DNA from: a virus
IMG/VR virus record: IMGVR_UViG_3300028920_000034
Location: 89,115-153,114 of that record
DNA: 64,000 nucleotides
Strand: one strand, 5' to 3'
Below are positions 13,652-30,841 of this stretch, in pieces; positions within the stretch are counted from its first letter, which is position 1; every line of letters begins with the position of its first letter. Both the position numbers and the translations under genes were made by a program. The notes below the pieces were generated by a model that was given only the letters and a program-made list of their open reading frames with translations, did not search any database and was not told the origin of the DNA.

Positions 13652-14086
13652 CTACGGTCCGCTCACCCGGACAATCACCGCTCTCTCGCCAGTATTGGCT
13701 CCACCCATGACTCGAATCCCGGACGGGAACGTGTAGTATCGCCCAGCGGCGGGACCATTCGCTCCACCGTCGCCGCCCATCTTCTTGAGCATCTTGTCCA
13801 AGGGCTCCCATACCATGTTGGCCATCGCCACCAGGTTGTCAGGGGCGTTGGGGATGCTTTTGTAGCCGATGTTGAACACCCGGCTGTCCCCCCGCTTGAG
13901 AGCTCGAAGGCGCTTGATCCCCTGCTTCTTGAGCTGGGCTTTGATCTTGTCTGCCATGCTGATGATCTCAGCCACTTGCTCCTCGCTCGCAGCTTCACCC
14001 ATGGCGCCAGTGGCACCAATGGCAGGAAAGTCCACCAGGCCCTGGTGCCCTCGCTCCTCCCGGAGCAATGCGTCTAGCCGATCCAT
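13652..14086 (-). CDS. Putative head cargo protein (leader MDRLDALLREE...MGE|A)
   Basis: AAGGAGG RBS; leader motif; basic mature part. Confidence 0.6.
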   Translation of the reverse strand: MDRLDALLREERGHQGLVDFPAIGATGAMGEAASEEQVAEIISMADKIKAQLKKQGIKRLRALKRGDSRVFNIGYKSIPNAPDNLVAMANMVWEPLDKMLKKMGGDGGANGPAAGRYYTFPSGIRVMGGANTGERAVIVRVSGP

Positions 14087-14151
14087 CGTTGCCTCCTTGT
14101 TCGCCGGCACGATGGCCGGGGCTTGCTTGAATTCGCGCCCCTATCCTAGCA

Positions 14152-14415
14152 CTACCGGGCGCTCGCATTCCAGTGCTCACCGAGCTGCTGTAGCCGGAGC
14201 TCCAGGAGCTCGCTCTGGCGGAGTCGCTGGCACGCCACCCACACGTGCGCCCAGAACCCCACCGACAACACCATCCCGCACGCGCACACGGCCGCAGCGA
14301 TGTTGTCCATGATGGTGCGGTCCATGATCCCGAACAGCACCGTCCCCAACAGGAACAGCGCGCCGAACACCAGGAACACCCACCCGATCATCTTCGGTTT
14401 CCGATCTTGTTTCAT
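14152..14415 (-). CDS. Two-TM membrane protein
   Basis: Two hydrophobic helices; directly downstream of element copy B. Confidence 0.6.
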   Translation of the reverse strand: MKQDRKPKMIGWVFLVFGALFLLGTVLFGIMDRTIMDNIAAAVCACGMVLSVGFWAHVWVACQRLRQSELLELRLQQLGEHWNASAR

Positions 14416-14455
14416 GGCTCCAATCTCCCCGGGCCACCACGGCCCGCAAATCAAA

Positions 14456-14523
14456 CCCTCAAGACTCTTCTCCTCTAACAGAGAGAGATAAGGTTAAGTA
14501 AGAAGAAGCAACAGCCGTGCCAA
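14456..14523 (-). repeat. ~70 bp intergenic element, copy B
   Basis: Minus strand TTGGCACGGCTGTTGCTTCTTCTTACTTAACCTTATCTC...AAGAGTCTTGAGGG. Confidence 0.85.
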
Positions 14524-14532
14524 GTTGAGGTG

Positions 14533-14899: not shown

Positions 14900-17131
14900 C
14901 TACCTGGTGATGTACTGCGCGTTCACGGTCGCGCGCTGCGTCACCTTGGCCGGATCGCCATCCTTGGAGTGGTTCCAGTTTCCGATCTGGAGGTACACGC
15001 GCGCCTGGTGACCCACCTTGTGGGTGGGGAGCTTGGGCTGCCGTTTCTCGTAGATGATGCTCTGCATCCCGAGCATCTTCCTGGGCCCCTCGTCCACGGA
15101 CCAGCCGTGCGAACTCGCCCAGCCCTGGATGGCTCGCTTGAGCTCCCAGAGCTCCTTGCTCGAAAGCGGCTTCTTGCGCGTGCTCAGGGCGCTACTCATC
15201 TGGGTGTACTGATGTGGTGAGCCCTGATACTCCACCTTGCTGGTGAACTTCGGGCGCTTGATCCCAAGGGGCCGGAGCAATGGCCACAGGGCCGCCAGGT
15301 CCTTGGGCACGGTGTCACCCTTGATCAGCTTGGGGCGCGCCGCCTCGTCCAGGTCCTCGAGCCCAGCGTCCTGGCGGAGCTCACCCAGGAGCCCACCGAG
15401 GTTGTCCTCGTCCTCCACGGACACGACGTTGCGGTTGCCGCCGGTGGCGATCTCCTCCTTGAACAGATCGGTGAGGGGGCGCCAATCGTACTTCCGGTCC
15501 CCCTTCCACACCTTCCGCATGTCCACCATGGTCTCGTCCAGCATCTTGGGCTTGACGTTGGCGTTCTTGTGCTCGGTGTAGGTGGACACGCTGAATTCGG
15601 TCATCCTGGGCGGAATTCGCACGATCATGGTGTGCTTCCCCAGCTTGGACTTCGTGACCCACCGCCCGGACACGGTGCCACCGGTGCCCTTGTCCCCGGT
15701 GAACCCCTTGACGCTGCCACCGATGGCCTTGCGGACCGCCTGGTCCAGCATCTTGATGATCATCATCTTGGCCTGGTGAAGCTGCTCGGGGCTGGCTGCC
15801 TCCCCGAGCTCCTGGTCCTCGAGCTCCATCCGCCCGCGCCCGCGCCCGGTCCCGTGCGGACCCTTGCCGTCCTGGACGCCGCTGCCCCGAGGTTTTCGAC
15901 CACACTTGCCCTTGGCCTCCTCGAGCTCACCGAGGAGCTCACCGAGGGAGTCCTGACCCTCGTTCGCGGCGAACGGGCTACGCTTGTTGCCCGTGCCCAG
16001 CACGTACCAGCTCCCGGTGTTCGGGTCCTCGAAGTAACCCTTTTCCCCGCTCAGACCGTGGCCACCGTGGAACACGAGTCCCTGGCGCTCGGCCCACTTT
16101 TTCAGGTAGCCCTCGGAGCCGCGCTTCACCAGCACATAGCCTTGCGAGCTTCCCCGGTCAGGCGCCTTGTAGAGGCCCGCGTGCTTTTTCATGATGCCCT
16201 CGTCCAGCTCCCGCCCCTCGGGGAACAGCCCGGGCTGGCTGCCGGAGGGCATCTTGCTCGCCTTGCGGCGCCGCTTGTCGCGCATCTTCACGCGCTGCGA
16301 GGGCTCGTAGTAGTCCTTGCTGGTGAAGTAGCGATTGAAGATCTCATCCGCCATCATCCGGCCGGAAATCCGCAGCATGATCCCGTAGAACACCAGAGCC
16401 GCGTTGTCCGGGACAGCCCGAAGGTAGCTGCCCATCTTCGGGTGAACCTTGCTGGCGTTCCGAAGGAACATCTGAAATGCCTTGCGGGGAGCCCTGGCGA
16501 TCACGTCCTGGGCATCGGGGATGTTGTCCGCGCCGAAAATGGCCGGGAGCTCCTCACGCGGCGCCGCTTCGATGGCGTCTCGAGTCTTCTTGAATAGGAG
16601 CATCTCAGGCCCGTGGCCGCCCTCGTCCTTCATCATTTTCAGCAATGGCGCGTCCACCTTGAACGAGCCAAGGCGACTGCGTTTCCCGCCGCTGCCCGTG
16701 GCCGCCCGCTTCTGGCGCTCGTTCAGGAGCCCAGCGTGGAACAGGATGTTGTCCGACTCCTCGAGCACCACCCCCATGAGGGCGCCCATCCGTTGCTCGT
16801 CCGTGCTCTCCCAGAGGTGCTTTCCCCACTTGCGCTGAATGTCCATTGCCACCTTTCGGGGCGTGAGCCCCTTGGAGCGCCACTTGAATCCGTGGTGTCC
16901 CTCTTCCGTTTCGCTATCGACCCAGGACTCCACGCTCAGGGCCCCTCCGCTGCGAATCGGCATGATGTAGATCACGCCGAAGGGCACGTTCACCCCGATG
17001 GTGTCCGAGCCTTTGGTCCGGGAGTAGCTGGGGTTGGCGCCCACGGTTCCGTTGAGAATTCCGGCCACCTCGCCCCACCACTTCATGAACCCCGTCTTGT
17101 CTTCGCGAGCAATCTTGTCCAGCGTTTTCAT
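14900..17131 (-). CDS. Putative cargo polyprotein (about 6 basic modules separated by acidic leader/cleavage linkers)
   Basis: Linkers VLEES..LLNE|R, ELDE|G, DSLGELLGELEE|A, ELGE|A, DNLGGLLGELRQDAGLEDLDE|A. Confidence 0.7.
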   Translation of the reverse strand: MKTLDKIAREDKTGFMKWWGEVAGILNGTVGANPSYSRTKGSDTIGVNVPFGVIYIMPIRSGGALSVESWVDSETEEGHHGFKWRSKGLTPRKVAMDIQRKWGKHLWESTDEQRMGALMGVVLEESDNILFHAGLLNERQKRAATGSGGKRSRLGSFKVDAPLLKMMKDEGGHGPEMLLFKKTRDAIEAAPREELPAIFGADNIPDAQDVIARAPRKAFQMFLRNASKVHPKMGSYLRAVPDNAALVFYGIMLRISGRMMADEIFNRYFTSKDYYEPSQRVKMRDKRRRKASKMPSGSQPGLFPEGRELDEGIMKKHAGLYKAPDRGSSQGYVLVKRGSEGYLKKWAERQGLVFHGGHGLSGEKGYFEDPNTGSWYVLGTGNKRSPFAANEGQDSLGELLGELEEAKGKCGRKPRGSGVQDGKGPHGTGRGRGRMELEDQELGEAASPEQLHQAKMMIIKMLDQAVRKAIGGSVKGFTGDKGTGGTVSGRWVTKSKLGKHTMIVRIPPRMTEFSVSTYTEHKNANVKPKMLDETMVDMRKVWKGDRKYDWRPLTDLFKEEIATGGNRNVVSVEDEDNLGGLLGELRQDAGLEDLDEAARPKLIKGDTVPKDLAALWPLLRPLGIKRPKFTSKVEYQGSPHQYTQMSSALSTRKKPLSSKELWELKRAIQGWASSHGWSVDEGPRKMLGMQSIIYEKRQPKLPTHKVGHQARVYLQIGNWNHSKDGDPAKVTQRATVNAQYITR

Positions 17132-17135
17132 CCTG

Positions 17136-18035
17136 TCACCTCTTGCGCGTCGTCACGGACAGCTTGGCCACGCCGAACTGGACGTTGGGCACCTGGGCCG
17201 TGATGGTGAAGTAGCCCGGCACGGTCACCAGGAGGGTGTCCTCCTCGTCCGCCAGGGCCGGCTGTTCGATGTACTTGCCGCCCAGTTTCGGGGCGAGCTT
17301 GCGGAGGGCGCTCCGGAGGTTCGCCCACTGGTCTCCCTTGGCCTCGCGATAGACCGGTTTGTACCAGGCCCGCTTCACCCAGTGGGGAGCCTTCGTGTTG
17401 CGGCGCCAGCCTTTGTCCTTGAGCCACTGGTCCAAGATCGGCATGAGCTCCCACGGGTCACGCCGCTGGGCATTGGCCTCGAGGATCAGATTACCGAGCT
17501 CGCGGACTGCCTGGAGGATGTGCTCCACCTGGGCGAACCGGGTATGCCTGGCCAGAAAACACTTCTCGCACTGGTAGTCCGTCTTGCGCTTCACGCCGCC
17601 GCACGTGGGGCACCTGGTCCGCTTCTTGACTTTGCGCTCCCCGCTGCCCAGGTCCACAGGGATGCTTTGCTGGTGGAGCTTGGCGCACCGTGGACACCAC
17701 TTCGTGCCCTTGCCGGCCGTCTTGGCCAGCTTTCGCTTGCAGTCGATACAGCGCCCCAGGAGCTCACCCGTGTGGGCCTCCTTGCGCGTGGGGGGCAACC
17801 TGAAGTCGGCCAGCTTCTGGCGACGTGTCGCCGGCTCTGGCGGGGGCTCGAGGGGCTCCGGGTCCGCCTGAGCCGGCGCCTGGCGAGGTGGCCTCCGGGG
17901 GTTGGGCACACGTCGCACGCGCGTGCGGGCTCTCGTGGCCCGCTTGCGCTCGGCCGCCCCGGAGAAGTCCAGGCCGATCTGGCTCACCTGGGCCCTGAGC
18001 TCCATCAGGAGCTCCTGGATCGCCTCAAGGTTCAT
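17136..18035 (-). CDS. Zn-finger protein with leader-like start MNLEAIQELLMELR
   Basis: Four CxxC pairs. Confidence 0.65.
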   Translation of the reverse strand: MNLEAIQELLMELRAQVSQIGLDFSGAAERKRATRARTRVRRVPNPRRPPRQAPAQADPEPLEPPPEPATRRQKLADFRLPPTRKEAHTGELLGRCIDCKRKLAKTAGKGTKWCPRCAKLHQQSIPVDLGSGERKVKKRTRCPTCGGVKRKTDYQCEKCFLARHTRFAQVEHILQAVRELGNLILEANAQRRDPWELMPILDQWLKDKGWRRNTKAPHWVKRAWYKPVYREAKGDQWANLRSALRKLAPKLGGKYIEQPALADEEDTLLVTVPGYFTITAQVPNVQFGVAKLSVTTRKR

Positions 18036-18037
18036 CC

Positions 18038-18697
18038 CTACCACCCCGGCGCCGGGCGCGCCTCGCGCGGCTTGAGCTTCACCTGGCCGTGAAGGAGCTG
18101 CATCCCGTATTCGGTCCAGAACTCCTTGGGGTTGTAGAACGAATCGATCTCCTGCCCCTGCTTCGCCAGGAGCACGAAGGGGAGGCGCTGGCTCTGGACT
18201 GCCTCGCTTCTGCGCCCGAGGCTCCACCCGTTGGGCAGGAGCACCGTGGTCTGCGGGTACATCTTGAGGGTGGCCAGCGTCTTGCGGAACACCTCCTGGG
18301 CGTCCAGCCCCTCGAGCTCATCCCAGCGCCCCGCCGTGGGGCCCTGGTAGAAGTAGCTGTAGGACTTCCCAGCGCGGCGGATCTTGACCACCGATCTCTG
18401 ATCGGCAAGGCGAGGGCGCGCCTCCATCAGCCCGGACTCCTCGCGGAGCTGCCCGAGGAGCTCACCGAGAGCGTCCCCCTCGAGCATTTCGATGTTGCCC
18501 ATCTTGCGGGGGCTGCCCTTCGGCTCTCCGCTCTCCAGGTCCAGCTCGAGGTAGTAGAGGTTGCCACCCTTGCCGGGCTTCTTGAGGCTCACCACGTAGG
18601 ACTTGGCATCCGCTCCCGCGGTCACCACCTCCCACTCCTGGCCGTCCACTTCGATGGTCTCGTAGGGAACGGGGAGCATGTACTGGGTTGGGGCCAT
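18038..18697 (-). CDS. Two-module putative cargo protein
   Basis: Internal linker DALGELLGQLREESGLME|A. Confidence 0.7.
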   Translation of the reverse strand: MAPTQYMLPVPYETIEVDGQEWEVVTAGADAKSYVVSLKKPGKGGNLYYLELDLESGEPKGSPRKMGNIEMLEGDALGELLGQLREESGLMEARPRLADQRSVVKIRRAGKSYSYFYQGPTAGRWDELEGLDAQEVFRKTLATLKMYPQTTVLLPNGWSLGRRSEAVQSQRLPFVLLAKQGQEIDSFYNPKEFWTEYGMQLLHGQVKLKPREARPAPGW

Positions 18698-18706
18698 GGG
18701 GTCCTC

Positions 18707-19330
18707 CTACCGCTTCTCGCGGGTGGCGCTGAGTACCTTGAACGCCTTGTCCTTGCGGAGGCGTTTCAGCTCCAGGCCGGTGACGCTGGTGATCTCGTAG
18801 ACGGTGCCGTGCTTCGGGTCCTCGCGGGAGCCCACGTTGCCGTACTCCTCCGCGCGATACCAGGGGTCCGTCTCCCTGGTCATCTTGCCGGTGGGCGGAT
18901 TCACCGCCTTCACCTCCACACGCCACCGCACGTAGTCCTCCTCTTTCTCCTGGGGCTGCTTCTTGCCGGCGAGGAGGGCCTTGAGCTTGCGAGCGCGCTC
19001 GGGGTGGTACTTCTGATAGCCGGACTTGAGCCAGGTCTCGGTGCCCTGGCGGATCAGGTCATCCGCGATAGGGCGCTGAATGCGCTGCTCCTTGCCCATC
19101 GAATAGAGCTGTTTGTAGGTCACCGCATCGTCCGTCACCCGGGTCACGAAGATGCCACTGGGCGAGCTCGAGGCGCCCATGAAATACACCTGGTTCGGGA
19201 AGATGGTCATCCCGCCGAGCTTGCGGAGACCGCCGGACCCGATGGCGTACATGGTCTCGTCCAGGGGCTCGTCCGAGCCGCCGCGGATCTGCTCGAGTAG
19301 CCGGGCCAGCTTCTGGGTTCTGATGCTCAT
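18707..19330 (-). CDS. Putative cargo protein
   Basis: Leader MSIRTQKLARLLEQIRGGSDEPLDE|T. Confidence 0.7.
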   Translation of the reverse strand: MSIRTQKLARLLEQIRGGSDEPLDETMYAIGSGGLRKLGGMTIFPNQVYFMGASSSPSGIFVTRVTDDAVTYKQLYSMGKEQRIQRPIADDLIRQGTETWLKSGYQKYHPERARKLKALLAGKKQPQEKEEDYVRWRVEVKAVNPPTGKMTRETDPWYRAEEYGNVGSREDPKHGTVYEITSVTGLELKRLRKDKAFKVLSATREKR

Positions 19331-19342: not shown

Positions 19343-20254
19343 CTACTTGACCGCCAGGTCACCCTTGGCGATGTGAATGGTGGCCACCTTGGTGAGCCCC
19401 ATGAACTTCAGTGCGCGCTTGGCCCCGGAGGCGTCCGGGGCCGTCATCACCAGGTGGAAGTCCGCCTGGCGGGGCTCCTGCATCCCGGGGAGCTGCACCT
19501 GCTTCAGGCGCACCGCCTGGCCGATGGCCTCGAGGGCCGGCCGCCGCATCTCTGCCCCCTCGTCCAACAGGAGCACCCCCTGGTTGGCCATGGTGAGCTC
19601 GCCTTCCACGTAGCGGCCGTTCCGCACCGTCCCGATCAGGCCCTTCATGCTCACCGTGTAGTGCGGGGCGCGAAGGGGCCCCTTCACCATCTCCGCGATG
19701 CGCCTGGCGATCATGATCCTCCCGGACCCTGGCTGGCCGGTCAGGATGATCGGAATGTCCTGCATGATGGCCTTCAAGATCTGGTCCACCACCTTTTTCC
19801 GGACCGTCAGGTCCCGGAACTGGGTCATCCCGGGCCGGCTCGCGCGGGCCTCGGTGAGCGGCTCCGGTTCGCTGGCTCGCGGCGCGCGGATGGTCTCCAG
19901 GAGGGTGCCCAGCTTGGCCGCCCTGGTCTCCTCCACCGGGCCCAGCTCGCTCAGGTACAGATACCCTGTACCGTCACCGGACTCGACCACGCACGCGGCT
20001 CCGCCGTCCGGGAGCTCGAAGCATGTCCGGCCGCTTTTGCTCACGGACTCCTCGAGCCCGAGCAATCCAAGGGCATGGGCAAAGCCTTTGCAGTCCTTGC
20101 TCTCGGTGAACGCGATCCACGCCGCTCCCGCCGGGGGGTCCGGCACTCCCAACGCATGGTCCCCATGCTTCGTGTAGGCCACGCTGTAGCCGCTGCGTTG
20201 CATCCGCCGGCTGATGGCCAGCATGGTCTTTCTGTACGGATGGCTGCGTCTCAT
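19343..20254 (-). CDS. Two-module protein; C-terminal ComM/YifB (Mg-chelatase-like) AAA+ fragment with degenerate Walker A
   Basis: GQPGSGRIMIARRI, PLRAPHYTVS..GLIG, GELTMANQGVLLLDE; preceded by linker KLGTLLETIR...LTE|A. Confidence 0.75.
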   Translation of the reverse strand: MRRSHPYRKTMLAISRRMQRSGYSVAYTKHGDHALGVPDPPAGAAWIAFTESKDCKGFAHALGLLGLEESVSKSGRTCFELPDGGAACVVESGDGTGYLYLSELGPVEETRAAKLGTLLETIRAPRASEPEPLTEARASRPGMTQFRDLTVRKKVVDQILKAIMQDIPIILTGQPGSGRIMIARRIAEMVKGPLRAPHYTVSMKGLIGTVRNGRYVEGELTMANQGVLLLDEGAEMRRPALEAIGQAVRLKQVQLPGMQEPRQADFHLVMTAPDASGAKRALKFMGLTKVATIHIAKGDLAVK

Positions 20255-20264
20255 GTGTCTTCCT

Positions 20265-20960
20265 TTACGCCGGCTTGTACTTGATCTCCACGGTGTCTCC
20301 CAGAATGCCTCGGAAGCCACTCCGGCTCGGGTCTCCGCGCCAATACTCGCGCCCCTTCAGGTAGCCCCATGTCGGATAGGGCTTCCTTCCTCGCGTGTTG
20401 TAGAGCTCGAAATGCTGATCTGCCTTTGATTTCGCCGGAAGGGGAACCTGTGCCCCCTTGAGCACACGTTCTTTTCGGACCACCTTGCGCTTGCGCTTGT
20501 CATACACCTCGTAATACTCGCGCACCGTCACCTTTGCGAGGGCCCACTTGCCAGGATCGGCTGGAACTGGCGACGGCTTGGCCGCTGGTTTACGTTTCAC
20601 TCGGGGCGGGGGCGCCCACGCGGGGAGATCTCCGCCAGGCCCATCGAAACCCATGGCCCACTTGGGCACCTCGTCCTCGCCCAGTGCCTCTTCGCGGAGC
20701 TCACCGAGGAGCTCGCCCAGGGAGTCATGGTCCTCCTTGATCCCCTTGAGCACCCATGCCATGGCGTCTTCCTTGGTTTTGAAGCCGCTGGCCTTCACGT
20801 CACGGTTGCGGTAGTTGCGGACCAGCACGTCGCCGCGGGCCGCGCCCCACCCGGCTGCCATCGTTTTCCAGACGGAACCGAGAACCTTGTTCCCGCGCAT
20901 GACTTCGTAGCTGTTGCCCTCATCGTTGTACTTTGGTGGAACCAATCTCGCCTTGGCCAT
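20265..20960 (-). CDS. Two-module putative cargo protein
   Basis: Internal linker DSLGELLGELREEALGE. Confidence 0.7.
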   Translation of the reverse strand: MAKARLVPPKYNDEGNSYEVMRGNKVLGSVWKTMAAGWGAARGDVLVRNYRNRDVKASGFKTKEDAMAWVLKGIKEDHDSLGELLGELREEALGEDEVPKWAMGFDGPGGDLPAWAPPPRVKRKPAAKPSPVPADPGKWALAKVTVREYYEVYDKRKRKVVRKERVLKGAQVPLPAKSKADQHFELYNTRGRKPYPTWGYLKGREYWRGDPSRSGFRGILGDTVEIKYKPA

Positions 20961-20969: not shown

Positions 20970-22334
20970 CTACTTCGTGAGTCCGCTGATGGTGAGCCAT
21001 TTCGCCTCGCCGTCCTTGCCGGCGTAGAAGCCCACCAGAGTCACTCGGCCGCTCCCGGTGGACTTGTACTCCTCGTTCACGGCGAGGCGCCACCCGAGGT
21101 ACTTCGATCCGGATGGTGCGTACTTCTGCACCATGGCCTTGGCATGGCGTCCAATCTGCACCGGGTCGATAAGCGGAAGCCCTTGCATGTTGCTCGGAAT
21201 CTTCGCCTCACCCAGGAACTCGCCTTCCAGCTCAGTGGCCTCGTACTGCATGGCCCGCTTCACCTGGAGAGGCTTCACCCACGCCGGGTGGCCGTCCAGG
21301 TCCCCGTAGGGGTTGAAACAGACCAGGTAGTGGCCTCTGTCCATGCTCCCCCGGATCAGCTTGAGGAGCGCCGCGGAGCCACCGGGGGCGATCAGCCGAA
21401 CCAGGTCGCGCGGAAGGGGCCCCTGGGCGTCACCCTTGGTGGGGTACACGCGCACCACCTTGAACTGTTGGCCGTCCGCCTCGAAGGGCTGCCCGGGGCG
21501 CGGAAGGGGCGCCCGCTCCTCGAGGTACTCTCCTCCCAGCTCAAAGTCCTCCCTCACATTGGACTTGGGCTTCTTTCCGTCCTTGAGGGCCTGAACGATC
21601 TGGCGCGCAATCACCCTGGCACTGTTCCAGTGCGGATCCTTCACACCGTACAGCTTGGCCAGGTACTGCATTTCAGGCACCGTCAGGTTGGCCGCCTCCA
21701 TCTTGCGCTGGAGGATGACAGCGAACGCATCGAAGCCGTACTGGTCACCCGGATACTCGCCGTCCAGGTGCCCCTTGCCCATCCGCTTGTGATAGGCGTA
21801 GAACTCCTTGGCCATCTTGTGCAGGTCCGCACCCGTGGCCTCCTCGAGACTGTCCTCGCTGCGAAGCTCACCGAGAAGTCTCTTGAGCTTCCCAGCCATC
21901 GCATCGCCCTCCAGTTGGCTGGGCGCGATCTCGCTCAGGAACACGTACCCGGTAAACGTGGCCATCGGCTTGAACGCTCCACGGAACGGATCCAACACCA
22001 CGTAGGCGTAGACACCCTTGCCAGGGCCGATGAACTCTTCGCGCTCCACGCCGTTGATGTTCCCGCTTCCCTCGTGTCGCCACCCACCGCCGCGCTGCAT
22101 GGCCGTGGAAAGCAAGGAGCGGAACTCATCGTACTGAGCTGGACCACCGGGAATCGGATAGCCCATGCCGTCCTTTTCCCGGTTGGTGTACTCGAAGGTG
22201 AGCCACTTGGTACCCTCTGGCGGATTCGGAATGCGGAACTGGCGCACTCCGCCGGACCGCCCTTTCACCTTGAAGCCATGCTTCTTGAGCGAAGATCCGA
22301 TGGCGGAGATCAGCTTTGGGTAATGCTTGCTCAT
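20970..22334 (-). CDS. Putative cargo polyprotein (about 4 modules)
   Basis: Linkers KLKRLLGELRSEDSLEE|A, YLEE|R, FLGE|A. Confidence 0.7.
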   Translation of the reverse strand: MSKHYPKLISAIGSSLKKHGFKVKGRSGGVRQFRIPNPPEGTKWLTFEYTNREKDGMGYPIPGGPAQYDEFRSLLSTAMQRGGGWRHEGSGNINGVEREEFIGPGKGVYAYVVLDPFRGAFKPMATFTGYVFLSEIAPSQLEGDAMAGKLKRLLGELRSEDSLEEATGADLHKMAKEFYAYHKRMGKGHLDGEYPGDQYGFDAFAVILQRKMEAANLTVPEMQYLAKLYGVKDPHWNSARVIARQIVQALKDGKKPKSNVREDFELGGEYLEERAPLPRPGQPFEADGQQFKVVRVYPTKGDAQGPLPRDLVRLIAPGGSAALLKLIRGSMDRGHYLVCFNPYGDLDGHPAWVKPLQVKRAMQYEATELEGEFLGEAKIPSNMQGLPLIDPVQIGRHAKAMVQKYAPSGSKYLGWRLAVNEEYKSTGSGRVTLVGFYAGKDGEAKWLTISGLTK

Positions 22335-22918: not shown

Positions 22919-23368
22919 TCACTTCCAGTCCGGGAGCTCCACCGCCACCGCCTTGAAAAGCTCCTCCGCGGCACCACCGAGATACCCGTGGCACTCGTTC
23001 ATGTCCTTGTTGACCTTGAGCATGAGCTCCACCATGTCAGGAATGCTGCGACCGTCACCCCGACCAGCTTGTTTCATTGCCGGCTCGAGTTGCTTCATCA
23101 GCTTCTCGGCCTTGGCCAGGTCCGCACGATGGGACTTCACCATATCGTGGAACGCTTCGATGTTGGCCATGAGCTGTTTGTACTGTGGGGGCTTGAACGC
23201 AGGCTTCCACCTGGACTCATCCAGCTCCTCGTCCTCCCCGAACATCTCGGGCTCGTACTCCTGGAGCCAGGCATCGAAGCCCTCCGCGGGCTCATTGGTC
23301 TCCTCGGGCTCGAGGCCGAGCTGGGAGCGGATGGATTCGATCAGGTCTCTTCCGGTCTCGGTGGGCAT
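22919..23368 (-). CDS. Putative cargo protein
   Basis: Leader DLIESIRSQLGLEP...ELDE|S. Confidence 0.7.
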   Translation of the reverse strand: MPTETGRDLIESIRSQLGLEPEETNEPAEGFDAWLQEYEPEMFGEDEELDESRWKPAFKPPQYKQLMANIEAFHDMVKSHRADLAKAEKLMKQLEPAMKQAGRGDGRSIPDMVELMLKVNKDMNECHGYLGGAAEELFKAVAVELPDWK

Positions 23369-23406: not shown

Positions 23407-23426
23407 TCCTACATGGCGGACACCTG
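23407..23426 (-). promoter_or_regulatory. 20 bp motif upstream of cargo operon (copy 1)
   Basis: CAGGTGTCCGCCATGTAGGA; 18/20 identical to 30906-30925. Confidence 0.55.
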
Positions 23427-23530: not shown

Positions 23531-23664
23531 GGTGGGCTAGTGGCGTCTTGGGCCGCCCAGAATGCGCCCGATGGTGCGCCACGCCGCGAGCCATGCGAGC
23601 CATGCGAGGGTGCCAGCCACGGCTACGGCGCCGGTGCCCACCAGGAGCCATCCCCACCAGGGCA

Positions 23665-23958
23665 TCAGGACCCAAGGCGCGTGGTGATCTGCTCACCGGC
23701 GGAGATTGGCAGGACGCTCAGGTATCCCTCGAGCCAGTCCGGGTCGCATCCCTCCGCGGGAAGCGCCAGCACATCGTCGGGGTTGCCGTCCGGGCGCACC
23801 GCCTGGCGCATTGCCTCCTTGGCCGCCTGGCGCCCGATCATCCATTGCTCGCGCTGGGCCAGCGTCTTGTCCGCCATGCTGGTGACGCCCGGGGTGGCCT
23901 CGTCCGGCTCACCGAGTAGGGTTCTCGCTGCGACAATCGGATCGGTCTCTTCTGGCAT
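23665..23958 (-). CDS. Small protein with DWxEGYLSxLP domain
   Basis: GGAGG RBS; motif shared with the first module of 27496..29139. Confidence 0.65.
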   Translation of the reverse strand: MPEETDPIVAARTLLGEPDEATPGVTSMADKTLAQREQWMIGRQAAKEAMRQAVRPDGNPDDVLALPAEGCDPDWLEGYLSVLPISAGEQITTRLGS

Positions 23959-23981
23959 TGGTTCCTCCTGTGCCCCCGATT

Positions 23982-24575
23982 CTACTCGGGGCGCGCGCAC
24001 GCGGCAACGGCCGGGGTGGCCCAGGGGTTGTTGTGCTTCGGATAGAGCACCACCCTGGCGAGCTCGGCCTTGAACAGCTTGAGGTTCGGAGCCGTCACCA
24101 CGATGCGTCCCCACTGGACCGTCGCCCGGAAGTTGCACACGCACGGGCACGCGGGAGTAGGCGTGCGAAGCCCACAGCACTCGTCCTTGATCTGGAGTCC
24201 CTTGGCTCGGCAGAGCTCGCACCTGGCGAGTGAGGGGACGAGCTGCTCCCCGGAGCACTTGGACACGTACCAGTCCGGGGGCACCATGACGGCGAAGCTC
24301 CGGCGACGAATCTCCTTGATCTCCCCGGCCGCCACCAGGCACGCCTCGAGGTGGTCCACCAGGGTGTCCACCCGGGCCCGGAACGCATCGGTGTCCTGGT
24401 CCGCGGGGGTCCAGATGGGTGTGCCCTTGGGCGTGGCGCGCCACTTGTCGCACTGGGGCATCTTGTAGCTGGTGGGGCTGGACAGGAAGGCGCTGTAGGG
24501 CTTGACCAGCTTGGGGCAGCCGCACGCCGCCAGGGCCACCGCGGCCCCGGCCAGGAGCATGGTGAGGCGCCTCAT
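23982..24575 (-). CDS. Cys-rich lipoprotein
   Basis: MRRLTMLLAGAAVALAA|C; many Cys. Confidence 0.65.
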   Translation of the reverse strand: MRRLTMLLAGAAVALAACGCPKLVKPYSAFLSSPTSYKMPQCDKWRATPKGTPIWTPADQDTDAFRARVDTLVDHLEACLVAAGEIKEIRRRSFAVMVPPDWYVSKCSGEQLVPSLARCELCRAKGLQIKDECCGLRTPTPACPCVCNFRATVQWGRIVVTAPNLKLFKAELARVVLYPKHNNPWATPAVAACARPE

Positions 24576-25045
24576 CGGAACACGGTGTTGCAGTCGGGCA
24601 CCAGCTCGGTGGGCCTTGAGGCCGAGACGTTGTGCTGGATCTTGACTTCCTTGGAGCTCCCCGGCTGGACGGTCACCCCCTTTCGGGAGTTGGTGGAAGC
24701 CGTGTAGTCCGAGCTCACGGTGGTGTCCCCGTCCGTGTGGCTGCCGCCATCGAACTTCAGGTGGCACGTCACGTCCCCGGTGACGGCCTTGGCCGTGGGG
24801 TTGTGGAGCCAGACGGTCACGGTCACGAAGTAGGTGCAGCCGGTGTTGTCGCACTGGCCGGGCAAGATCCACAGTTTCTTGACCACGGTTTGGTGGGGTC
24901 CTGCCTGGGCTGGGTCCCCGCGGTAAGGCTTGTCCTTGGATTCCTGGGTTCCTCCGAACACGTCACACCGCTTGCAGCCGCCGCCGGTGAGGAGCCAAGC
25001 GATGGCCAGGAGCACCACCAGGATAAGGGTCAGGGTCCGGTTCAT
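24572..25045 (-). CDS. Secreted/lipoprotein, beta-rich
   Basis: N-terminal hydrophobic segment ending TGGGC; GGAGG RBS. Confidence 0.65.
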   Translation of the reverse strand: MNRTLTLILVVLLAIAWLLTGGGCKRCDVFGGTQESKDKPYRGDPAQAGPHQTVVKKLWILPGQCDNTGCTYFVTVTVWLHNPTAKAVTGDVTCHLKFDGGSHTDGDTTVSSDYTASTNSRKGVTVQPGSSKEVKIQHNVSASRPTELVPDCNTVFR

Positions 25046-25226
25046 GATTCACCTCCGGTGCAGAGCATCGTAGCCCACCAGGTGAGCTGCCCGGAATAAT
25101 TTTCGGCCGATTTTCACCGCTACCGGCCACGCCGTGGGGGTTTTGCCTGTGCTTTTCAGTAGGTTGCGCCTGATTTTCGGCGCGTGATGAAACCCTCAAT
25201 CGGGTCGCCAAAACCGGAAGTGAGGG

Positions 25227-26261
25227 TCATGCGCGCTTGGCCAAGAGGGCCTCGAGGGCCCGCTTCTTGGCCTTGAGCTTGCGCTCGAGCTCCTCCGCCT
25301 CGCGCCCGGCCGCGCGGTCCCGGTAGCTCATGCCACGCTCTGCCAGCCGCCGCTCACGCCAGTCGTGCGTCACTCCGAACCCGGAGTCCTTGCGGGCCTC
25401 CGCTTCCGTCTTGCGCCTCGAGTACACGAAGGCGTCCCCGCAGCTCACCTTGAAGTTGGTGCCGTACTTCCCACCCGAGGGCCCCACCTCTACCGGCGGG
25501 GGCTGCATCTTCTGGATCTGCTTCCAGATGGTGCTGTACTTCTTGGCCCGGTCCTTGAGGGCCGCGAGCTTGCGCTCCCACTTGGCGATGGTCTTCGCCG
25601 CGCTGGCGCCGGCCTTGGCTGTTGGCAGCAATGAGCTGCCCTTCATGCAGTTCGTCCCCACCACAGCCGTCCGCTTGTCTGCGAGCTGGACGGTGGCATG
25701 GACTTCGTGGGGGCGCCCGCACCTGGCGCACCAGCTCTCGGTGCCCGAGCCCTTGATCGGCACCCAGCGGTCATCGATCTCCTCATAGTCCCGGGTGTCC
25801 ACCACGTCCAAGATCTTGACGATGGTGTCCGGGTCCAGGCCGCCCTTCCAGCGCGTGCGCCGCTGGCGCGGGGGCTTGCGCTTGCTCGTCTTGGCAGCGA
25901 AGTCCAGTACGATCTGGCTCGCTTCGCCCAGGAGCTCCTTGGCGCCCGGGGCGAGCTCAATGGCGATGCTTTGAACGTGTGCCATGTACCCTGGTTCCCG
26001 TGGCACGCGATAGCCGTCCGCGGTCCTGAGAACGGCCAGGCCCTTGTCCACCAGAGACTTGCAGGCGTTGTAGTCCCGGCCGCCCCCACGTGTTCCGTGT
26101 GCAGACCGTGGCCCATGATAGGACCATGCCTCCGCCGTGTAGTAGCCTCTGGATGGATCCAGGAGCTGCTTCAAGATCTTCTGTTCCGTCTTGTTGAGCC
26201 TGGAGCGCCGTGGTCGCGCTTCCGCCAGAAGTTGCGCGAGCTCCTCGAGTAGTTGCTTCAT
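25227..26261 (-). CDS. Two-module putative cargo protein with CxxC...VGxxC motif
   Basis: Leader MKQLLEELAQLLAE|A; internal LLGE|A. Confidence 0.7.
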   Translation of the reverse strand: MKQLLEELAQLLAEARPRRSRLNKTEQKILKQLLDPSRGYYTAEAWSYHGPRSAHGTRGGGRDYNACKSLVDKGLAVLRTADGYRVPREPGYMAHVQSIAIELAPGAKELLGEASQIVLDFAAKTSKRKPPRQRRTRWKGGLDPDTIVKILDVVDTRDYEEIDDRWVPIKGSGTESWCARCGRPHEVHATVQLADKRTAVVGTNCMKGSSLLPTAKAGASAAKTIAKWERKLAALKDRAKKYSTIWKQIQKMQPPPVEVGPSGGKYGTNFKVSCGDAFVYSRRKTEAEARKDSGFGVTHDWRERRLAERGMSYRDRAAGREAEELERKLKAKKRALEALLAKRA

Positions 26262-26264
26262 GGC

Positions 26265-27494
26265 TCAGTCCCTGTTGAGCACCTTGGACACCAGGCGCTC
26301 GTATTCCACGCCTTGCCCGACATGATGCTGATCGTCGTCCTCGAATTCAGCGAACGGATCGTGCCCCGCTTGCTCGAGATAGTAGCTCACGTACTCGCGC
26401 TTGGCCGCGCCAGCGGGGACCGTCTTGAGCCAGTTGACGAACAGCTCTCCGCCGTAGGCCATCTTCGTGGCACGCTTGGACGCCTTGGCGCCCTTGGTGG
26501 CGAGCTGCTTCACGGCCGTGAGGTAGGCCACGGTCCACATCTGCCCGGCCTTGCGTTGCTTGCTCTCGTCCCACCCGAGGCTGTCCAGGATGTTGGCCAG
26601 CGAATTGGTCTCACCCATGTCGCAGTTGATCGACGGGCGCCGCTTCCACTGCTCCCAGCCTTCCAGGATGCCACCTCCGAACGCCTCGGATGCCTCCTTG
26701 GACCGCTGATCGATCTGCGCCCTGGCCACCACAGCCATCGCCTCGCGGATTTCTCCCACGATGCGCTCGAGCACCTGGAGCCCCTCCTTGTAGAGCTCCT
26801 TGTACTTGCCTTGCCCGCGCATCTCGTGAGGCATCTTCTGGGCGAGTACCCGGTCCTGGGCCGGGGAGAGCTCGCGGCCGGTCTGGAGCTGGGCCACCAG
26901 GGACTGAAGGAAGTCGTCGTCCTGGTAGGTGGGGATGGCTTGGATCTTGGAGATCATCGGAGCGTTCTTCTGGGCCCTGGCCTCCTGGGCCTTCCGCTCA
27001 CCGTGGGCATCGTACAGGGTAGGCGCATCACCGTCGCGCTCGAAGGTGGTCTGCTCCACCCCGATCACTTCGCCGCCGTGATGCGAGTCCGCCTCCTTGC
27101 CCCGGCCAGCGCGCACCTTGAGCTTGGCCCGAGCCACCACTCCTCCGCCGTCCACCACGAAAGCGAAACCGTAGTAGCGGACCTTGCTGGCCGTCCGTGT
27201 GCCGAAACCTTGAATCCGGTCGGTCACCATGACGGCCATGTCGTTCGGGCCCTTGAGGTACGGCCGGGCCCACTGCTTCACCAGTGGGTTCGCCTTGAAC
27301 CACCTGTCCTGGAGCTTGCGGTAGAGGAACTTCGCCTGGGCCGGAGACTTGAACTTGCCCCCGTTGTACTTGGCCAGGGAGTTGAGGGACTTCATCATGT
27401 CCTGTGGGTCGGGCCCACCGAGCCCCTCCACCAGCTCTGCGAGCTCCTCGAGGAGCATTAACGGGTATCGCTGTTTGTAGGTGGCCTTGTTCAT
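26265..27494 (-). CDS. Putative cargo protein
   Basis: Leader LLEELAELVE|G near the start; exact start uncertain. Confidence 0.65.
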   Translation of the reverse strand: MNKATYKQRYPLMLLEELAELVEGLGGPDPQDMMKSLNSLAKYNGGKFKSPAQAKFLYRKLQDRWFKANPLVKQWARPYLKGPNDMAVMVTDRIQGFGTRTASKVRYYGFAFVVDGGGVVARAKLKVRAGRGKEADSHHGGEVIGVEQTTFERDGDAPTLYDAHGERKAQEARAQKNAPMISKIQAIPTYQDDDFLQSLVAQLQTGRELSPAQDRVLAQKMPHEMRGQGKYKELYKEGLQVLERIVGEIREAMAVVARAQIDQRSKEASEAFGGGILEGWEQWKRRPSINCDMGETNSLANILDSLGWDESKQRKAGQMWTVAYLTAVKQLATKGAKASKRATKMAYGGELFVNWLKTVPAGAAKREYVSYYLEQAGHDPFAEFEDDDQHHVGQGVEYERLVSKVLNRD

Positions 27495-27495
27495 G

Positions 27496-29139
27496 CTACT
27501 CGCTGTCCTCGAGGGCCATCGCTGCCGCGGATGGCCGGCTTTGGAGCTTACGCACCAGGTCCTTGAGGAGCCCTTTCGCGCGCCATGCGCCCGCGCGGGC
27601 CTTGCCCACCAGCTCGGCTGCGTCCCGGGCATCGATCATTGCCGCCCGCGGGGGCGGGGGGTCCATGCGTCCGAGTAGGTCCGCGAGGGAGTCCGCGCCA
27701 CGCAGGTCCACCTGGGCGTCCATGGCTGCCCGGGCGATGTACTCGAGGGGGTTGGCCTTGATCTGGTGAGCCGCGCCGCTCGGGAGGTGCAGCTTGACGG
27801 CCTCGAGGAGCCCCCCGAGGGTGTCCGTGGACTCCTGGGCGCGGAGCTTCTTGAGGTGGGCCTCCATGGATCGGATGGTCTGCTCGAGCTTGCCCTTGAG
27901 CTTGCGCTCATCACGGGAGAGCTCCCCGGCCATCCTGGCGATGGTCCGGTATTCGGCCTTGATCGAAGCGAGCTCCGCCTCGAGCCGGTCAGCGACCGTG
28001 GCCTTGGCCTCCCCGAACATGCCGGTCTGAATCGGGTCCGGACGCCGCTTCTCGGAGCCGCCGGCCCCGGGGCTGATGGTGACCGTCATGGAATCGTAGA
28101 TTGCCTGGTGGGCGATCTCCACCTGGGCATTGCCCTTGCGGTAGATCCACCTGTTGCGATGTTCCCAGCCGCCCGGCTTGAACCCCGCCTCGGTGAACCC
28201 CTTGCGCTGGAGCCATTCGATGATGGCCTTCCGGCACTCATGGGGGCGCCCCACGTCGTCCTTGGACAGCACCATGCCTTGGCCGCCCTTGCCCGGCTCC
28301 ACCTTGAACCGGCCGTACCGCTTGATCGCCTTGGCCAGCGCCATGGCGAACGCCACGTCCGGATCCACCAGGGGCCGGCTTTCCCCGAATAGTGCTCCCT
28401 GGCCGGTGAACTCGCGCCGGGCCGGCTTGTGCGCGCTGGGGCCTTCGGGCCCGCGTAGCTGGATGTTCCGAGAGTAGATGATCCGAATCCCCTTGAACGG
28501 GGTGGACGATTCGATGCTCACCTCGTCCCGGTCCCGCTTGTAGATCTGCCGGTAGGGCTTGCCCCACTCGAAATCGTCCGGCTTGCCGGTCGTCTTGGCG
28601 AGCTTGAAGCCCTGACCCAGGAGGAACCGCTTGAGCTTGCGGCGCACCTCCTCGCCCTTGTTGCCCACGTCGTCGCACTTGAGGGCGTAGCTCATCGGGC
28701 CAGCAGTGTCCTGGTACTTCCAGGAGCCGGTGCCTTTGAGCTTCTCCTTGAGCTTCTCCCCGAAGTCGGCGCCCTTGGACTCCTCGAGCTCGATGCCCTC
28801 CCCGAGGCGCCGCCGGGCCTGGACAGCCACCTCGAGGGGTAGCGCGGACAGGTAGCCCTCCCGCCAGTCCTTGTTGTCGGACTTCTGGGGCACCTGGACG
28901 GCGAGCTTGGCTCCGCCTCGCCGCATGTCCACCCGGGCCGTGGCCGCGCCGGCCTTGAACGCCTTGCTCAAGGTGTTCACGCCCGTCTTGGACTTGAGCT
29001 GGGCGAGCTTGGTTTGCAGGGCCGCCACGTTGCTCGCGTCCCGATGTAGGTCTCCGAACCGGCGCTTCTTGCGCCCTTCATCGAGCTCCATGCCGGCCGC
29101 TTCGCGGATACCCTGTAGCAGATTGTCCAGATGGTTCAT
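27496..29139 (-). CDS. Putative cargo polyprotein (about 5 modules, two paralogous)
   Basis: Leader LDNLLQGIREAAGMELDE|G; linkers LEE|S, FGE|S, FGE|A, DTLGGLLE|A. Confidence 0.7.
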   Translation of the reverse strand: MNHLDNLLQGIREAAGMELDEGRKKRRFGDLHRDASNVAALQTKLAQLKSKTGVNTLSKAFKAGAATARVDMRRGGAKLAVQVPQKSDNKDWREGYLSALPLEVAVQARRRLGEGIELEESKGADFGEKLKEKLKGTGSWKYQDTAGPMSYALKCDDVGNKGEEVRRKLKRFLLGQGFKLAKTTGKPDDFEWGKPYRQIYKRDRDEVSIESSTPFKGIRIIYSRNIQLRGPEGPSAHKPARREFTGQGALFGESRPLVDPDVAFAMALAKAIKRYGRFKVEPGKGGQGMVLSKDDVGRPHECRKAIIEWLQRKGFTEAGFKPGGWEHRNRWIYRKGNAQVEIAHQAIYDSMTVTISPGAGGSEKRRPDPIQTGMFGEAKATVADRLEAELASIKAEYRTIARMAGELSRDERKLKGKLEQTIRSMEAHLKKLRAQESTDTLGGLLEAVKLHLPSGAAHQIKANPLEYIARAAMDAQVDLRGADSLADLLGRMDPPPPRAAMIDARDAAELVGKARAGAWRAKGLLKDLVRKLQSRPSAAAMALEDSE

Positions 29140-29447
29140 GGTGTGCGTTCTTCCTTGGCTGCCGCCGCCTGGACTTCCTTGGCCTTGGCTTCGATCCCCT
29201 TGGCGAGGGCGATCACCGCCTTCAGGTCTCGGCCTTTGACGGCCTTGACGAGCTTCAGGAGCTTGCCGTGGATCTCGCCAGTGCAGTTGGCGATCTCTGG
29301 CCACTGGTCCTTGCGTGGCTTGGGGTCGAGCCGTCCCGCCGGGGCGCTTCCACGGTGGCGTCCGGCGAGAATATCGTCAGCGCCCCACCGGGTCTCGTCC
29401 ACTGGCTCGAGCCCGGCCGCTTGGCGAATCTCCTCGGTGATGCTCAT
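29136..29447 (-). CDS. Putative cargo protein
   Basis: Leader MSITEEIRQAAGLEPVDE|T. Confidence 0.7.
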   Translation of the reverse strand: MSITEEIRQAAGLEPVDETRWGADDILAGRHRGSAPAGRLDPKPRKDQWPEIANCTGEIHGKLLKLVKAVKGRDLKAVIALAKGIEAKAKEVQAAAAKEERTP

Positions 29448-29454
29448 GGTGCTC

Positions 29455-30315
29455 CTACTTCGCGGCGAGGATCTTCGCGCCAGCGAGATTCACCACATCG
29501 AACTCGGAGCCATAGCCGGTGTCCCGCCCGCGGTAGACCTTCACGTGCAGTGGCTTGGGCGAATAGATGTTCAAGCGGTCCTCGAAGTCCTGTCCATCGG
29601 TGGCCATGCGGATGGCAGCCTTGAGGCGCTTGAGCCCCTTGATCGTGCCGCCAGAGCCCTGGACCATGCCGGTGTACTTCTTGCCGTTGGCAGTCTGAAT
29701 CGTGAACGTGAGACCGTCCTTGTTGTGACTGGCCATCGCCTCGGTGAGCCCGGCCGCTTGGCGCACATCTTCCACCAGGTCCGCGGAGAACTCGGTGTCC
29801 TCATGCCGAGCTCGCTCCACCTTCCTGACGCCCTCATAGGCTGCCTTGGTGGCCGCCACCGAGGCTTCGATGGCCTCTTTCAGCTTGTAGGGGATGCCCT
29901 CTTTTCGGCTGTCGATGCCCTCCATGCCAGCCACCACCTGGTTGGCATAGTGGGCTGCCAGCTTCGCGTTTGCCCCAACGGTGCCCCGCTTCGGATTGTA
30001 GGGGGAGCGAACCTCGTCCAGCTCGGTGTCCTCCGTGTGGCCCTTGAGGGCCCACTGGAGAGCTGTCACCAGGTTGTCCACGTTGGCACCCTTGGCTTGC
30101 TCCCGCTTGGCGAACACCCAAACGCTGTTGAGCTTCTTGGCTGGCACGTTGTTCTTGAGCCAGTTGGCGAGCTTTTTGATGTGGGTGTTGCTCCACCTGG
30201 CAGGGTTGGTTTTGATCCCCGCGTTGCTGGCGAAGCTGGAAACGATTTTGGTAAGGGCTGGGTCCACCGCTTCGCCCAGCCCGGCTTCGGCGCGGATGCT
30301 TTCGATGATGTTCAC
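29455..30315 (-). CDS. Putative cargo polyprotein (3 modules)
   Basis: AGGAG then GTG at 30315; leader NIIESIRAEAGLGE|A; linkers ELDE|V, DLVEDVRQAAGLTE|A. Confidence 0.7.
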   Translation of the reverse strand: MNIIESIRAEAGLGEAVDPALTKIVSSFASNAGIKTNPARWSNTHIKKLANWLKNNVPAKKLNSVWVFAKREQAKGANVDNLVTALQWALKGHTEDTELDEVRSPYNPKRGTVGANAKLAAHYANQVVAGMEGIDSRKEGIPYKLKEAIEASVAATKAAYEGVRKVERARHEDTEFSADLVEDVRQAAGLTEAMASHNKDGLTFTIQTANGKKYTGMVQGSGGTIKGLKRLKAAIRMATDGQDFEDRLNIYSPKPLHVKVYRGRDTGYGSEFDVVNLAGAKILAAK

Positions 30316-30325
30316 GATGGAGCTC

Positions 30326-30841
30326 CTACTTCTCGACGGTGAGGCCCTTTTCCGCCAGGTAGGCGAGAATGGCCTTGGTGAACATGGCACGGATGCGCTG
30401 GCTCATGGGTTTTGACCAGTCGCCTTTTTTGGCCCAGCCGGTGCCGTAGGCTTTGATCAGCTTGCGCTTGACTGCGACTGCCGCAGCGGCGGAGAGCTGG
30501 TCCAGCTTGTTGTCACTGAGGATGAGGTTGTCATCCTGGGTGAGGCCCTCCTCGAGCTCGGTGTCCACGTCTTCGCGGGTGGTGGTGACGCTCATGGGCT
30601 TACCGCCCGCGAGCCCGGCGATCCGATTCACGTACATGGACACCTGGGAGACCCGGTTGAACACGTTGAGGGCCTGGCGCCGCTTCACGAAGTCGCCCAG
30701 CGTGTTCACGTTGCGCGCGAGTCGGTGCATGGCCTGATCCACCTTGCGCCAGGTGCTCGCGTCCATTTCGGCTTCGGTGAGGTTCTCTTTGGGCTCGAGG
30801 CCCGCGTGGCTCCGGATCTCTTCGATCAGATTCTGGCTCAT
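30326..30841 (-). CDS. Putative cargo protein (2 modules)
   Basis: Leader MSQNLIEEIRSHAGLEPKENLTE|A; internal ELEE|G. Confidence 0.7.
   Translation of the reverse strand: MSQNLIEEIRSHAGLEPKENLTEAEMDASTWRKVDQAMHRLARNVNTLGDFVKRRQALNVFNRVSQVSMYVNRIAGLAGGKPMSVTTTREDVDTELEEGLTQDDNLILSDNKLDQLSAAAAVAVKRKLIKAYGTGWAKKGDWSKPMSQRIRAMFTKAILAYLAEKGLTVEK

Follow-up and report, generated by a model that had tools for sequence, protein, structure and literature searches.

An array of leader-bearing genes in an uncultured phage as a candidate enlarged, modular T4-like capsid-targeting and internal-protein system

Introduction

In bacteriophage T4, whose N-terminal propeptides are 10–19 amino acids (aa) long, three internal proteins, namely IPI, IPII, and IPIII, as well as Alt are loaded by a 10-residue tag that is removed by gp21, and this tag is already in use for packaging foreign proteins. 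Here we describe an array of 16–17 consecutive orphan genes bearing a leader that can be compared with this tag. The array occupies ~17 kb on the minus strand, from 30841 down to 13652, of a 64,000-nucleotide stretch (the window) that forms the end (positions 89,115 to 153,114) of the single-contig, 153,114-bp, 64% GC genome of an uncultured phage (IMG/VR record IMGVR_UViG_3300028920_000034). We consider it probable that the array is an enlarged, modular T4-like capsid-targeting and internal-protein system, in which the leader would be subject to protease processing.

The T4 internal proteins are diverse, with the capsid-targeting sequence (CTS) alone conserved (PMC3012670), and are loaded into the scaffolding core (PMC3012670; PMC5694885). 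They are "highly basic," and the CTS reads M-K-T-Y-Q-E-F-I-A-E (PMC8442874); targeting depends on its residues 4 and 7, and processing on residues 8 and 10 (PMC9026906). The window phage resembles T4 in encoding homologues of gp20, gp21, and gp23 and, judged from sequence alone, in placing a short acidic amphipathic propeptide that ends in hydrophobic-x-Glu on unrelated basic proteins. As in T4 internal-protein loci, the array is hypervariable and the tag alone is conserved (PMC3012670; PMC8442874; PMC9026906; PMC5694885). In one relative, G006, the leader is 10 residues long and in the same register as the CTS, a likeness of pattern only. The array differs from T4 in scale, with 16–17 genes and ~26 modules compared with three internal proteins plus Alt; in the leader itself, which is longer (14–31 residues), has a second half reading A-G-L-x-E, and occurs internally, between modules, as well as at the N terminus, where the T4 tag is found; and in that neither leader nor array proteins show detectable sequence homology to the T4 CTS or internal proteins. 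The larger size and the internal tags that were claimed in an initial annotation of this DNA both hold at the sequence level.

Three other systems offer partial parallels. In the giant phages phiKZ, 201phi2-1, and SPN3US, inner-body or ejection proteins are processed by gp21-related proteases (gp175, gp245); many of the proteins inside their heads are cleaved at a short motif, the cut falling after Glu, and propeptides can be long (111–254 residues) and cut at several sites (PMC10052503; PMC7411985; PMC9026906). However, giant phages use A-x-E (SPN3US) or a similarly loose motif, with no common docking helix reported (PMC10052503), their processed proteins belong mostly to conserved paralogue families rather than to a shuffled orphan array, and the 153-kb genome described here is not that of a jumbo phage. 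In the Dar system of phage P1, an N-terminal 30-residue signal of DarB suffices for gp23-type capsid loading, and the cargo acts in the next host (PMC9024508), but the signal has been demonstrated on one protein only, loading is hierarchical via DarA and Hdf, and no multi-protein cleavable tag is known. Polyvalent proteins (Iyer et al., 2017; PMC5512222) supply the concept of unrelated modules within one capsid-packaged polypeptide that are delivered with the DNA and released by proteolysis. Although these proteins are defined by conflict domains and embedded peptidases (PMC5512222), none were found here by Pfam or PHROGs, and release in the array would instead rely on the prohead protease and the repeated leader. 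Our literature search found no paper describing such leader arrays.

Results

The leader consists of an acidic amphipathic helix followed by hydrophobic-x-Glu↓small residue (the arrow marks the predicted cut). Its strong form can be written h-h-x-[EG]-h-R-x-x-[AS]-G-L-x-E (h, hydrophobic), and leader copies fall into two sub-types, N-L-I-E-E-I-R...A-G-L-E at N termini and D-x-L-G-E-L-L-G-E-L-R at internal positions. A hidden Markov model (HMM) of the leader, a check suggested in the initial annotation, was trained on eight leaders and run on six frames of the whole genome. The eight training copies scored 13.9–22.8 bits and an untrained ninth (at 20717) scored 8.2, with a best background match of 5.4. 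All nine lie within 15397–30835 of the window, and strong leaders are thus found in the array only. With an ungapped BLOSUM profile of 17 leaders from three phages, ten copies in eight genes (g01, g02 with two copies, g03, g04, g10, g12, g16, and g18) scored 25–36, compared with a maximum of 18.9 among 37,379 positions outside the array, a contrast that is partly circular, as the top copies were chosen by the regular expression of the training set and most belong to that set. The g13 and g21 leaders are borderline (17.2 and 18.9, respectively) and about five copies, including those in g05, g14, and g19 and a second copy in g18, are weak. The initial annotation had proposed that ~15 genes share the motif. 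The peptides it quoted are present in the minus-strand translation where it placed them, and the sharing takes the form of a graded series, with eight clear, two borderline, and five to six weak cases.

Two simpler patterns are also more frequent in the array. The first half-motif, h-h-x-x-h-R, is 3.7-fold enriched (18 in 5,232 aa vs 37 in 39,371 aa; p = 3e-5). The second pattern, the site [LIVFM]-x-E-[AGST], is 1.8-fold denser within the array than outside it and, in our own reading of the translations, falls within ~20 residues after ~15 of 18 leaders. A crude test for a helix plus a site within 40 aa separates array from background only weakly (6/17 vs 15/136; p = 0.015).

Selection acts on the leader as a peptide. 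The conserved Ala, Gly, and Arg positions of the window leaders are written with varied synonymous codons, and conserved Leu positions in the G006 leader use up to five codons; therefore, the constraint is on the peptide and not on the DNA.

All real genes, judged by GC content at third codon positions (GC3) across the whole 153,114-bp genome, are on the minus strand. The array runs in the order g01–g06, three leaderless membrane genes, g10–g19, a membrane gene, and g21. With start codons refined by ribosome-binding sites, N-terminal leaders of 14–31 aa are found in g01–g04, g06, g10, g11, g15, g17, and g21. Internal leaders are strong in g02, g12, g16, and g18 and weaker in g13 and g14, and N-domains of 70–150 aa lie ahead of the internal leaders in g12, g13, g14, and g16. 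The genes are as follows:

30326..30841, minus strand: g01, 171 aa; strong N-terminal leader, aa 1–23 (30773–30841), site L-T-E↓A
29455..30315, minus strand: g02, 286 aa; strong N-terminal leader (30271–30315) and strong internal leader, aa 175–192 (29740–29793)
29136..29447, minus strand: g03, 103 aa; strong N-terminal leader (29394–29447)
27496..29139, minus strand: g04, 547 aa; strong N-terminal leader (29077–29139); isoelectric point (pI) 9.8
26265..27494, minus strand: g05, 409 aa; weak leucine-rich leader near the N terminus (27426–27467)
25227..26261, minus strand: g06, 344 aa; acidic helix of 14 residues at the N terminus, which has L-A-E↓A at its end and is similar in kind to the T4 CTS; pI 10.0
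23537..25045, minus strand: three leaderless membrane genes that divide the array, namely
24572–25045, minus strand: lipoprotein, leaderless
23982–24575, minus strand: lipoprotein, leaderless
23537–23665, minus strand: 42-aa transmembrane peptide, leaderless
22919..23368, minus strand: g10, 149 aa; strong N-terminal leader (23306–23368); acidic, pI 4.6
22344..22910, minus strand: g11, 188 aa; weak N-terminal leader (22833–22910); two h-x-E↓small sites
20970..22334, minus strand: g12, 454 aa; N-domain with a paralogue in g14, followed by a strong internal leader, aa 148–165 (21840–21893)
20265..20960, minus strand: g13, 231 aa; borderline internal leader (20673–20735)
19343..20254, minus strand: g14, 303 aa; N-domain, followed by a weak internal leader with L-T-E↓A at its end (19850–19918) and an AAA+/Mg-chelatase-type domain
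18707..19330, minus strand: g15, 207 aa; weak N-terminal leader (19256–19330)
18038..18697, minus strand: g16, 219 aa; strong internal leader, aa 73–92 (18422–18481), site L-M-E↓A
17136..18035, minus strand: g17, 299 aa; weak N-terminal leader (17949–18035); zinc-ribbon-rich, pI 10.3
14900..17131, minus strand: g18, 743 aa; multi-module, with cryptic (16721–16777), internal (15917–15958), and strong internal (15344–15412) leaders
13652..14086, minus strand: g21, 144 aa; borderline N-terminal leader (13994–14086), site M-G-E↓A

The strongest new evidence comes from natural variants, whose sequences indicate that modules are swapped, deleted, fused, or split at leaders and cleavage-type sites. 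The head proteins of a sister phage (G005; IMG/VR UViG 3300029258_001212) are 96%–99% identical to those of the window phage, and its array is a mosaic relative to that of the window, with swaps at or beside leaders. In one G005 gene, residues 173–286 of g02 follow an N-terminal part resembling g01, and the swap point is the start of the g02 internal leader. Part of the C-terminal module of g12 (residues 266–385, 61% identical) is found in a 343-aa G005 protein that bears an N-terminal leader, g13 is absent from G005, and three leader-bearing G005 genes are new.

The longest gene of the array, g18, varies in a similar way. P0016, a 658-aa relative of g18, lacks exactly residues 306–441, a stretch bounded by two Glu sites, and carries its Gly/Arg-rich module after the next module, the reverse of the order in g18. 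The C-terminal module of P0016 is 63% identical to the stand-alone g21 mature module (E = 7e-44), and the homology begins immediately past the predicted cut in both proteins. Residues 133–272 of g18 occur as the stand-alone proteins P0017 and P0018, behind leader-like N termini; it is on this basis that we assign a cryptic leader to g18 residues 119–137. In an AlphaFold model of g18 that is of poor quality, both internal leaders are isolated helices in segments with predicted local distance difference test (pLDDT) scores <50, and the better-modelled blocks (~170–270, 446–563, and 608–740) flank the leader linkers. A predicted fold spanning the linkers, which would have spoken against independent modules, is seen across neither of these two leaders.

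An exhaustive HMMER search recovered seven members of the g21 family, in which leaders hold one aligned position before the mature domain, four of them N-terminal and three internal. The leaders at this position include strong, g15-type, g21-type, and other variants; thus, strong and weak leaders are interchangeable for g21. P0026 has a g15-type leader ahead of a g21-family module, and P0024 has the g21 leader on an unrelated module. The family occurs once in GTDB genomes and was not found in IMG/VR, JGI contigs, or INPHARED phages.

The window also encodes head-assembly genes of the T4 type, including the gp21-type protease and the capsid I-S-E↓A site named in the initial annotation:

3015..3284, minus strand: 89-aa gene between the capsid and neck genes, M-Q-D-R-I-D start, L-D-E↓A at residue 14
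4669..6168, minus strand: gp23-type major capsid protein (Pfam Gp23, 4.6e-69; PHROG 138)
6230..7798, minus strand: prohead protease, S77 domain plus long C-terminal extension (Peptidase_S77, 5.6e-20; PHROG 207)
7808..8881, minus strand: scaffold-like protein, highly charged, with five h-x-E↓small sites (from sequence)
8927..9859, minus strand: 310-aa protein of the head module, no assignment
10070..11782, minus strand: T4-type portal, gp20 (Portal_T4, 6e-62; PHROG 213)

The predicted maturation site of the capsid protein, I-S-E↓A at residues 64–66, lies directly N-terminal of the gp23 domain, and in each of the six relatives examined, an h-x-E with A, S, or D next to it occupies the corresponding position. 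The scaffold-like protein and the protease extension are both rich in h-x-E↓small sites. The C-terminal tail of the protease is conserved in five relatives and appears leader-like by eye. In a 13-column profile comparison, the tail was the best protease match in four of five proteins and the G002 tail exceeded all background, and the narrow leader HMM gave no match to the protease tails. The last ~25 residues of the protease may thus weakly resemble the leader, a suggestive likeness that would fit the C-terminal propeptide proposed to target the SPN3US protease into the prohead (PMC7411985). We considered that the cargo mimics the protease tail and do not rely on this idea, as the BLOSUM profile result is suggestive and not robust.

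Relatives with capsid proteins 51%–72% identical to that of the window phage carry arrays of their own. Three strong-type leaders are present in G002 (capsid protein 72% identical, 55% GC), and four genes between its capsid and neck genes bear leaders of another class, M-Q-D-R-F-[DN]-x-L-L-E-A-I...L-D-E↓A; the syntenically placed window gene at 3015–3284 belongs to this class too. Four copies of a further variant, M-S-h-K-E-L-R...E-S-V-h-G-E↓A/S, lie just upstream of the portal gene in G001 (capsid protein 51% identical). G006 is a 125-kb contig (CAZLJI010000001.1; 38.7% GC, capsid protein 71% identical) binned in an Ignavibacteriaceae metagenome-assembled genome. Thirteen G006 genes start with M-[ST]-K-L-[ED]-x-L-L; they are confined to one 10-kb block, and the six frames of the 125 kb contain no further case. 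This ten-residue leader is hydrophobic at positions 4, 7, and 8 and has Glu at 9 or 10, and the array includes homologues of g05 (34% identity), g13, and g21.

Some other features of these relatives deserve mention. The G006 leader array contains a DNA N6/N4 methylase (L135:9045-9932; Pfam 7.9e-36) that starts M-S-K-L-E-K. This methylase may carry the tag, which would recall anti-restriction proteins borne by capsids. A PRTase-domain protein (window 48683–49327; G006 L135:15071-15706; 57% identical) is at the array edge in G006 and 18 kb upstream of the array in the window, and its leader-like N terminus belongs to the conserved protein. The capsid proteins of G006 and the window phage are 71% identical despite a 25-point gap in GC content (38.7% vs 64%), and the clade must therefore span very different hosts. 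In G003 (L004, IMGVR_UViG_3300042731_008775), portal similarity occurs in four pieces of one 1,567-aa frame (G003:C1:12546-17165), and this portal gene probably carries inteins.

Outside these relatives, searches returned little. The best capsid-protein identity in INPHARED is 33%, indicating no close cultured phage in that database, which also holds no nucleotide match to the array. A search of 5.8 billion proteins with the leader profile yielded only the three training contigs among the matches listed, weakly suggesting that the leader is restricted to the clade. A degenerate leader DNA pattern run over IMG/VR gave, among the matches listed, single chance matches except in the sister phage (three).

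The array encodes ~5,200 residues, mostly folded-looking basic modules that include an AAA+ domain and zinc ribbons. The description of its products as Lys/Arg-rich and otherwise unrelated is borne out: the median pI is 9.55 compared with 6.44 for other genes (p = 1e-3), and BLASTP matches among array proteins consist of the leaders plus the one N-domain paralogous between g12 and g14. We count ~26 leader- or site-delimited modules, close to the "roughly 30" effectors initially proposed, although this is a count of modules and not of 30 demonstrated products. Searches of the ESM Atlas with the array found no function, and the multi-module genes, including g18, contain no conflict/effector or embedded peptidase domains in Pfam. 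A likeness of the g12/g14 N-domain to HicA was dropped, as it has no Pfam support. The AAA+ domain of g14 sits C-terminal of the internal leader (19343–20254), and its Walker A motif, G-Q-P-G-S-G-R, is without the usual Lys.

Three sequence elements may bear on how the array is transcribed:

30906..30925, minus strand: first copy of a 20-nucleotide (nt) element, C-A-G-G-T-G-T-C-C-G-N-N-A-T-G-T-A-G-G-A (N, free base), located ~65 nt upstream of where g01 starts
23407..23426, minus strand: second copy, ~40 nt upstream of the start of g10, which begins the second array block
14508..14522, minus strand: sense sigma-54-type −24/−12 element, after g19 and before g20, g21, and the head genes

The 20-nt element, a candidate array-specific promoter or operator judging by its placement, has only two exact copies in the 153-kb genome, and both are at the same places in G005. 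As the array has these elements of its own and not the sigma-54 cassette, most of it would constitute a separate two-block regulon. A terminator-like hairpin (31682–31702, minus strand) and, after it, a repeat-rich non-coding stretch precede the array. This stretch, ~770 bp just upstream of the array (window 31260–32025), contains several GTGGATCC-type direct repeats and other short repeats and may be a regulatory or origin-like region. The two blocks of the array are split by an antisense sigma-54-type element (23460–23474, plus strand) together with the three leaderless membrane/lipoprotein genes (23537–25045, minus strand). Scans for an A-rich motif and for sigma-70 revealed no convincing promoter class.

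Discussion

We favor an enlarged T4-like capsid-targeting and internal-protein system because the site that follows the leader obeys the predicted maturation rule of the capsid protein and because the G006 leader is in the register that functional mapping of the T4 CTS would predict. From what we observe, namely the motif, its restriction to the array, selection at the peptide level, modularity, the head-gene repertoire, and the capsid-protein site, we infer that docking, cleavage, head retention, and ejection would follow one another. The acidic amphipathic helix would dock the protein on either the scaffolding core or the prohead's inner face during shell assembly. The S77 prohead protease, active only within the prohead, would then cut after the Glu of the hydrophobic-x-Glu↓small site. 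The basic mature modules would remain in the head with the DNA, and at least some would enter the host along with it. Where the signal is internal, one docking helix could bring in several modules, to be freed by cuts at the leader and at further h-x-E sites. Genes such as g18 would then act as multi-module precursors, and the array would evolve through shuffling of leader-delimited modules.

How does the delivery system of head-loaded effectors envisaged in the initial annotation fare? The head machinery, restricted leader, peptide-level conservation, and independent modules all speak for it. The term "effectors" is a guess, as only the AAA+ domain has an assignment, and that the cargo is injected to act in the host seems to us less likely than that the leader serves in capsid targeting and processing.

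Several points weigh against a T4-like system. The case is built from the genome of an uncultured phage, and no homology was detected between the leader or array proteins and the T4 CTS, IPI–III, or Alt. Pfam and PHROGs searches of all array proteins gave no significant family except the AAA+/Mg-chelatase domain of g14. The ungapped profile misses the leaders of g06, g11, g15, and g17, which have in common with the strong leaders only the first half-motif h-h-x-x-h-R. Several leaders have a Pro after the first Glu (A-G-L-E-P), making the precise cut sites uncertain. The AlphaFold model of g18 has a mean pLDDT of 48.5 and is based on an alignment of three sequences. The likeness of the protease tail to the leader is statistically fragile: an 11-column profile matched at chance level (per-position p ~1e-3), and of the protease tails, only that of G002 exceeds all background. 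About 18 kb separates the portal gene of G006 from its array. In the window, the main array does not lie behind the sigma-54 element of the head genes and has its own 20-nt element, and the timing of the array, early or late, is the main gap in the argument.

These last points bear on an alternative that we judge unlikely, in which the leader is a non-capsid signal. The helix might dock to a hub protein of host or phage origin, such as a chaperone, protease, polymerase, or membrane/compartment import factor, or might serve as a degron controlling when early host-takeover proteins are destroyed, with the Glu sites incidental or cut by another protease. In favor of this reading are a promoter-like element distinct from the head promoter, the adjoining upstream block of small accessory genes, the distance of the G006 array from the head genes, and cargo without known function. 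However, the cleavage rule seen at the predicted capsid maturation site recurs consistently after the helix, module boundaries in natural variants coincide with Glu sites, and in length as well as register the G006 leader agrees with the T4 CTS (PMC9026906). Genes of the leader type are also found within the head module, both in G002 and at 3015–3284.

We find it more doubtful still that the tagged proteins belong to the prohead core or scaffold, in the manner of T4 gp22, gp67, and gp68, and that they enter by means of the leader, build or size the head, and are then degraded to peptides and expelled, with nothing delivered. In favor of this reading are the same head machinery and site type, the 1.8-fold greater density of h-x-E↓small sites in the array, the place of g21 in the head transcription unit behind the sigma-54 element, and the g21 family being the best-conserved module. 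However, array genes are gained, lost, and recombined between phages with 96%–99% identical head proteins, and structural scaffolds would be expected to co-vary with the shell rather than turn over. Some 5,200 residues of mostly folded-looking basic modules, with an AAA+ domain and zinc ribbons, also argue against a scaffold.

That the leader is mainly a DNA-level recombination boundary for gene cassettes, with no role for the peptide, is very improbable: although modules are swapped at or beside leaders among the window phage (G000), G005, and P0016, the conserved residues use many synonymous codons in both the window and G006, different leader classes hold the same position before one homologous module, and the leader is always in frame with a Glu site after it.

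If the array is indeed a T4-like capsid-targeting and internal-protein system, a bolder extension, which we put forward tentatively, is that this clade, with hosts of 38% to 64% GC, has programmable head-loading. One helix plus a protease site, placed N-terminally or between modules, would load and free at least two dozen shuffling basic proteins per virion. Such an injected arsenal would follow the cassette logic of polymorphic toxins and effectors, with precursors matured by the capsid protease.

If the array works as the T4 system does, the protein cargo delivered by capsids could be an order of magnitude more diverse than in model phages, and one tag could serve inside multi-module precursors. 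The fast turnover of cargo between near-identical phages would be the signature expected of interplay with host defence. For a set of phages from the environment, the leader and its site would provide a tag-and-site pair that is both defined and portable, and the ~26 orphan modules would form a candidate list for proteins that act in the first moments of infection.

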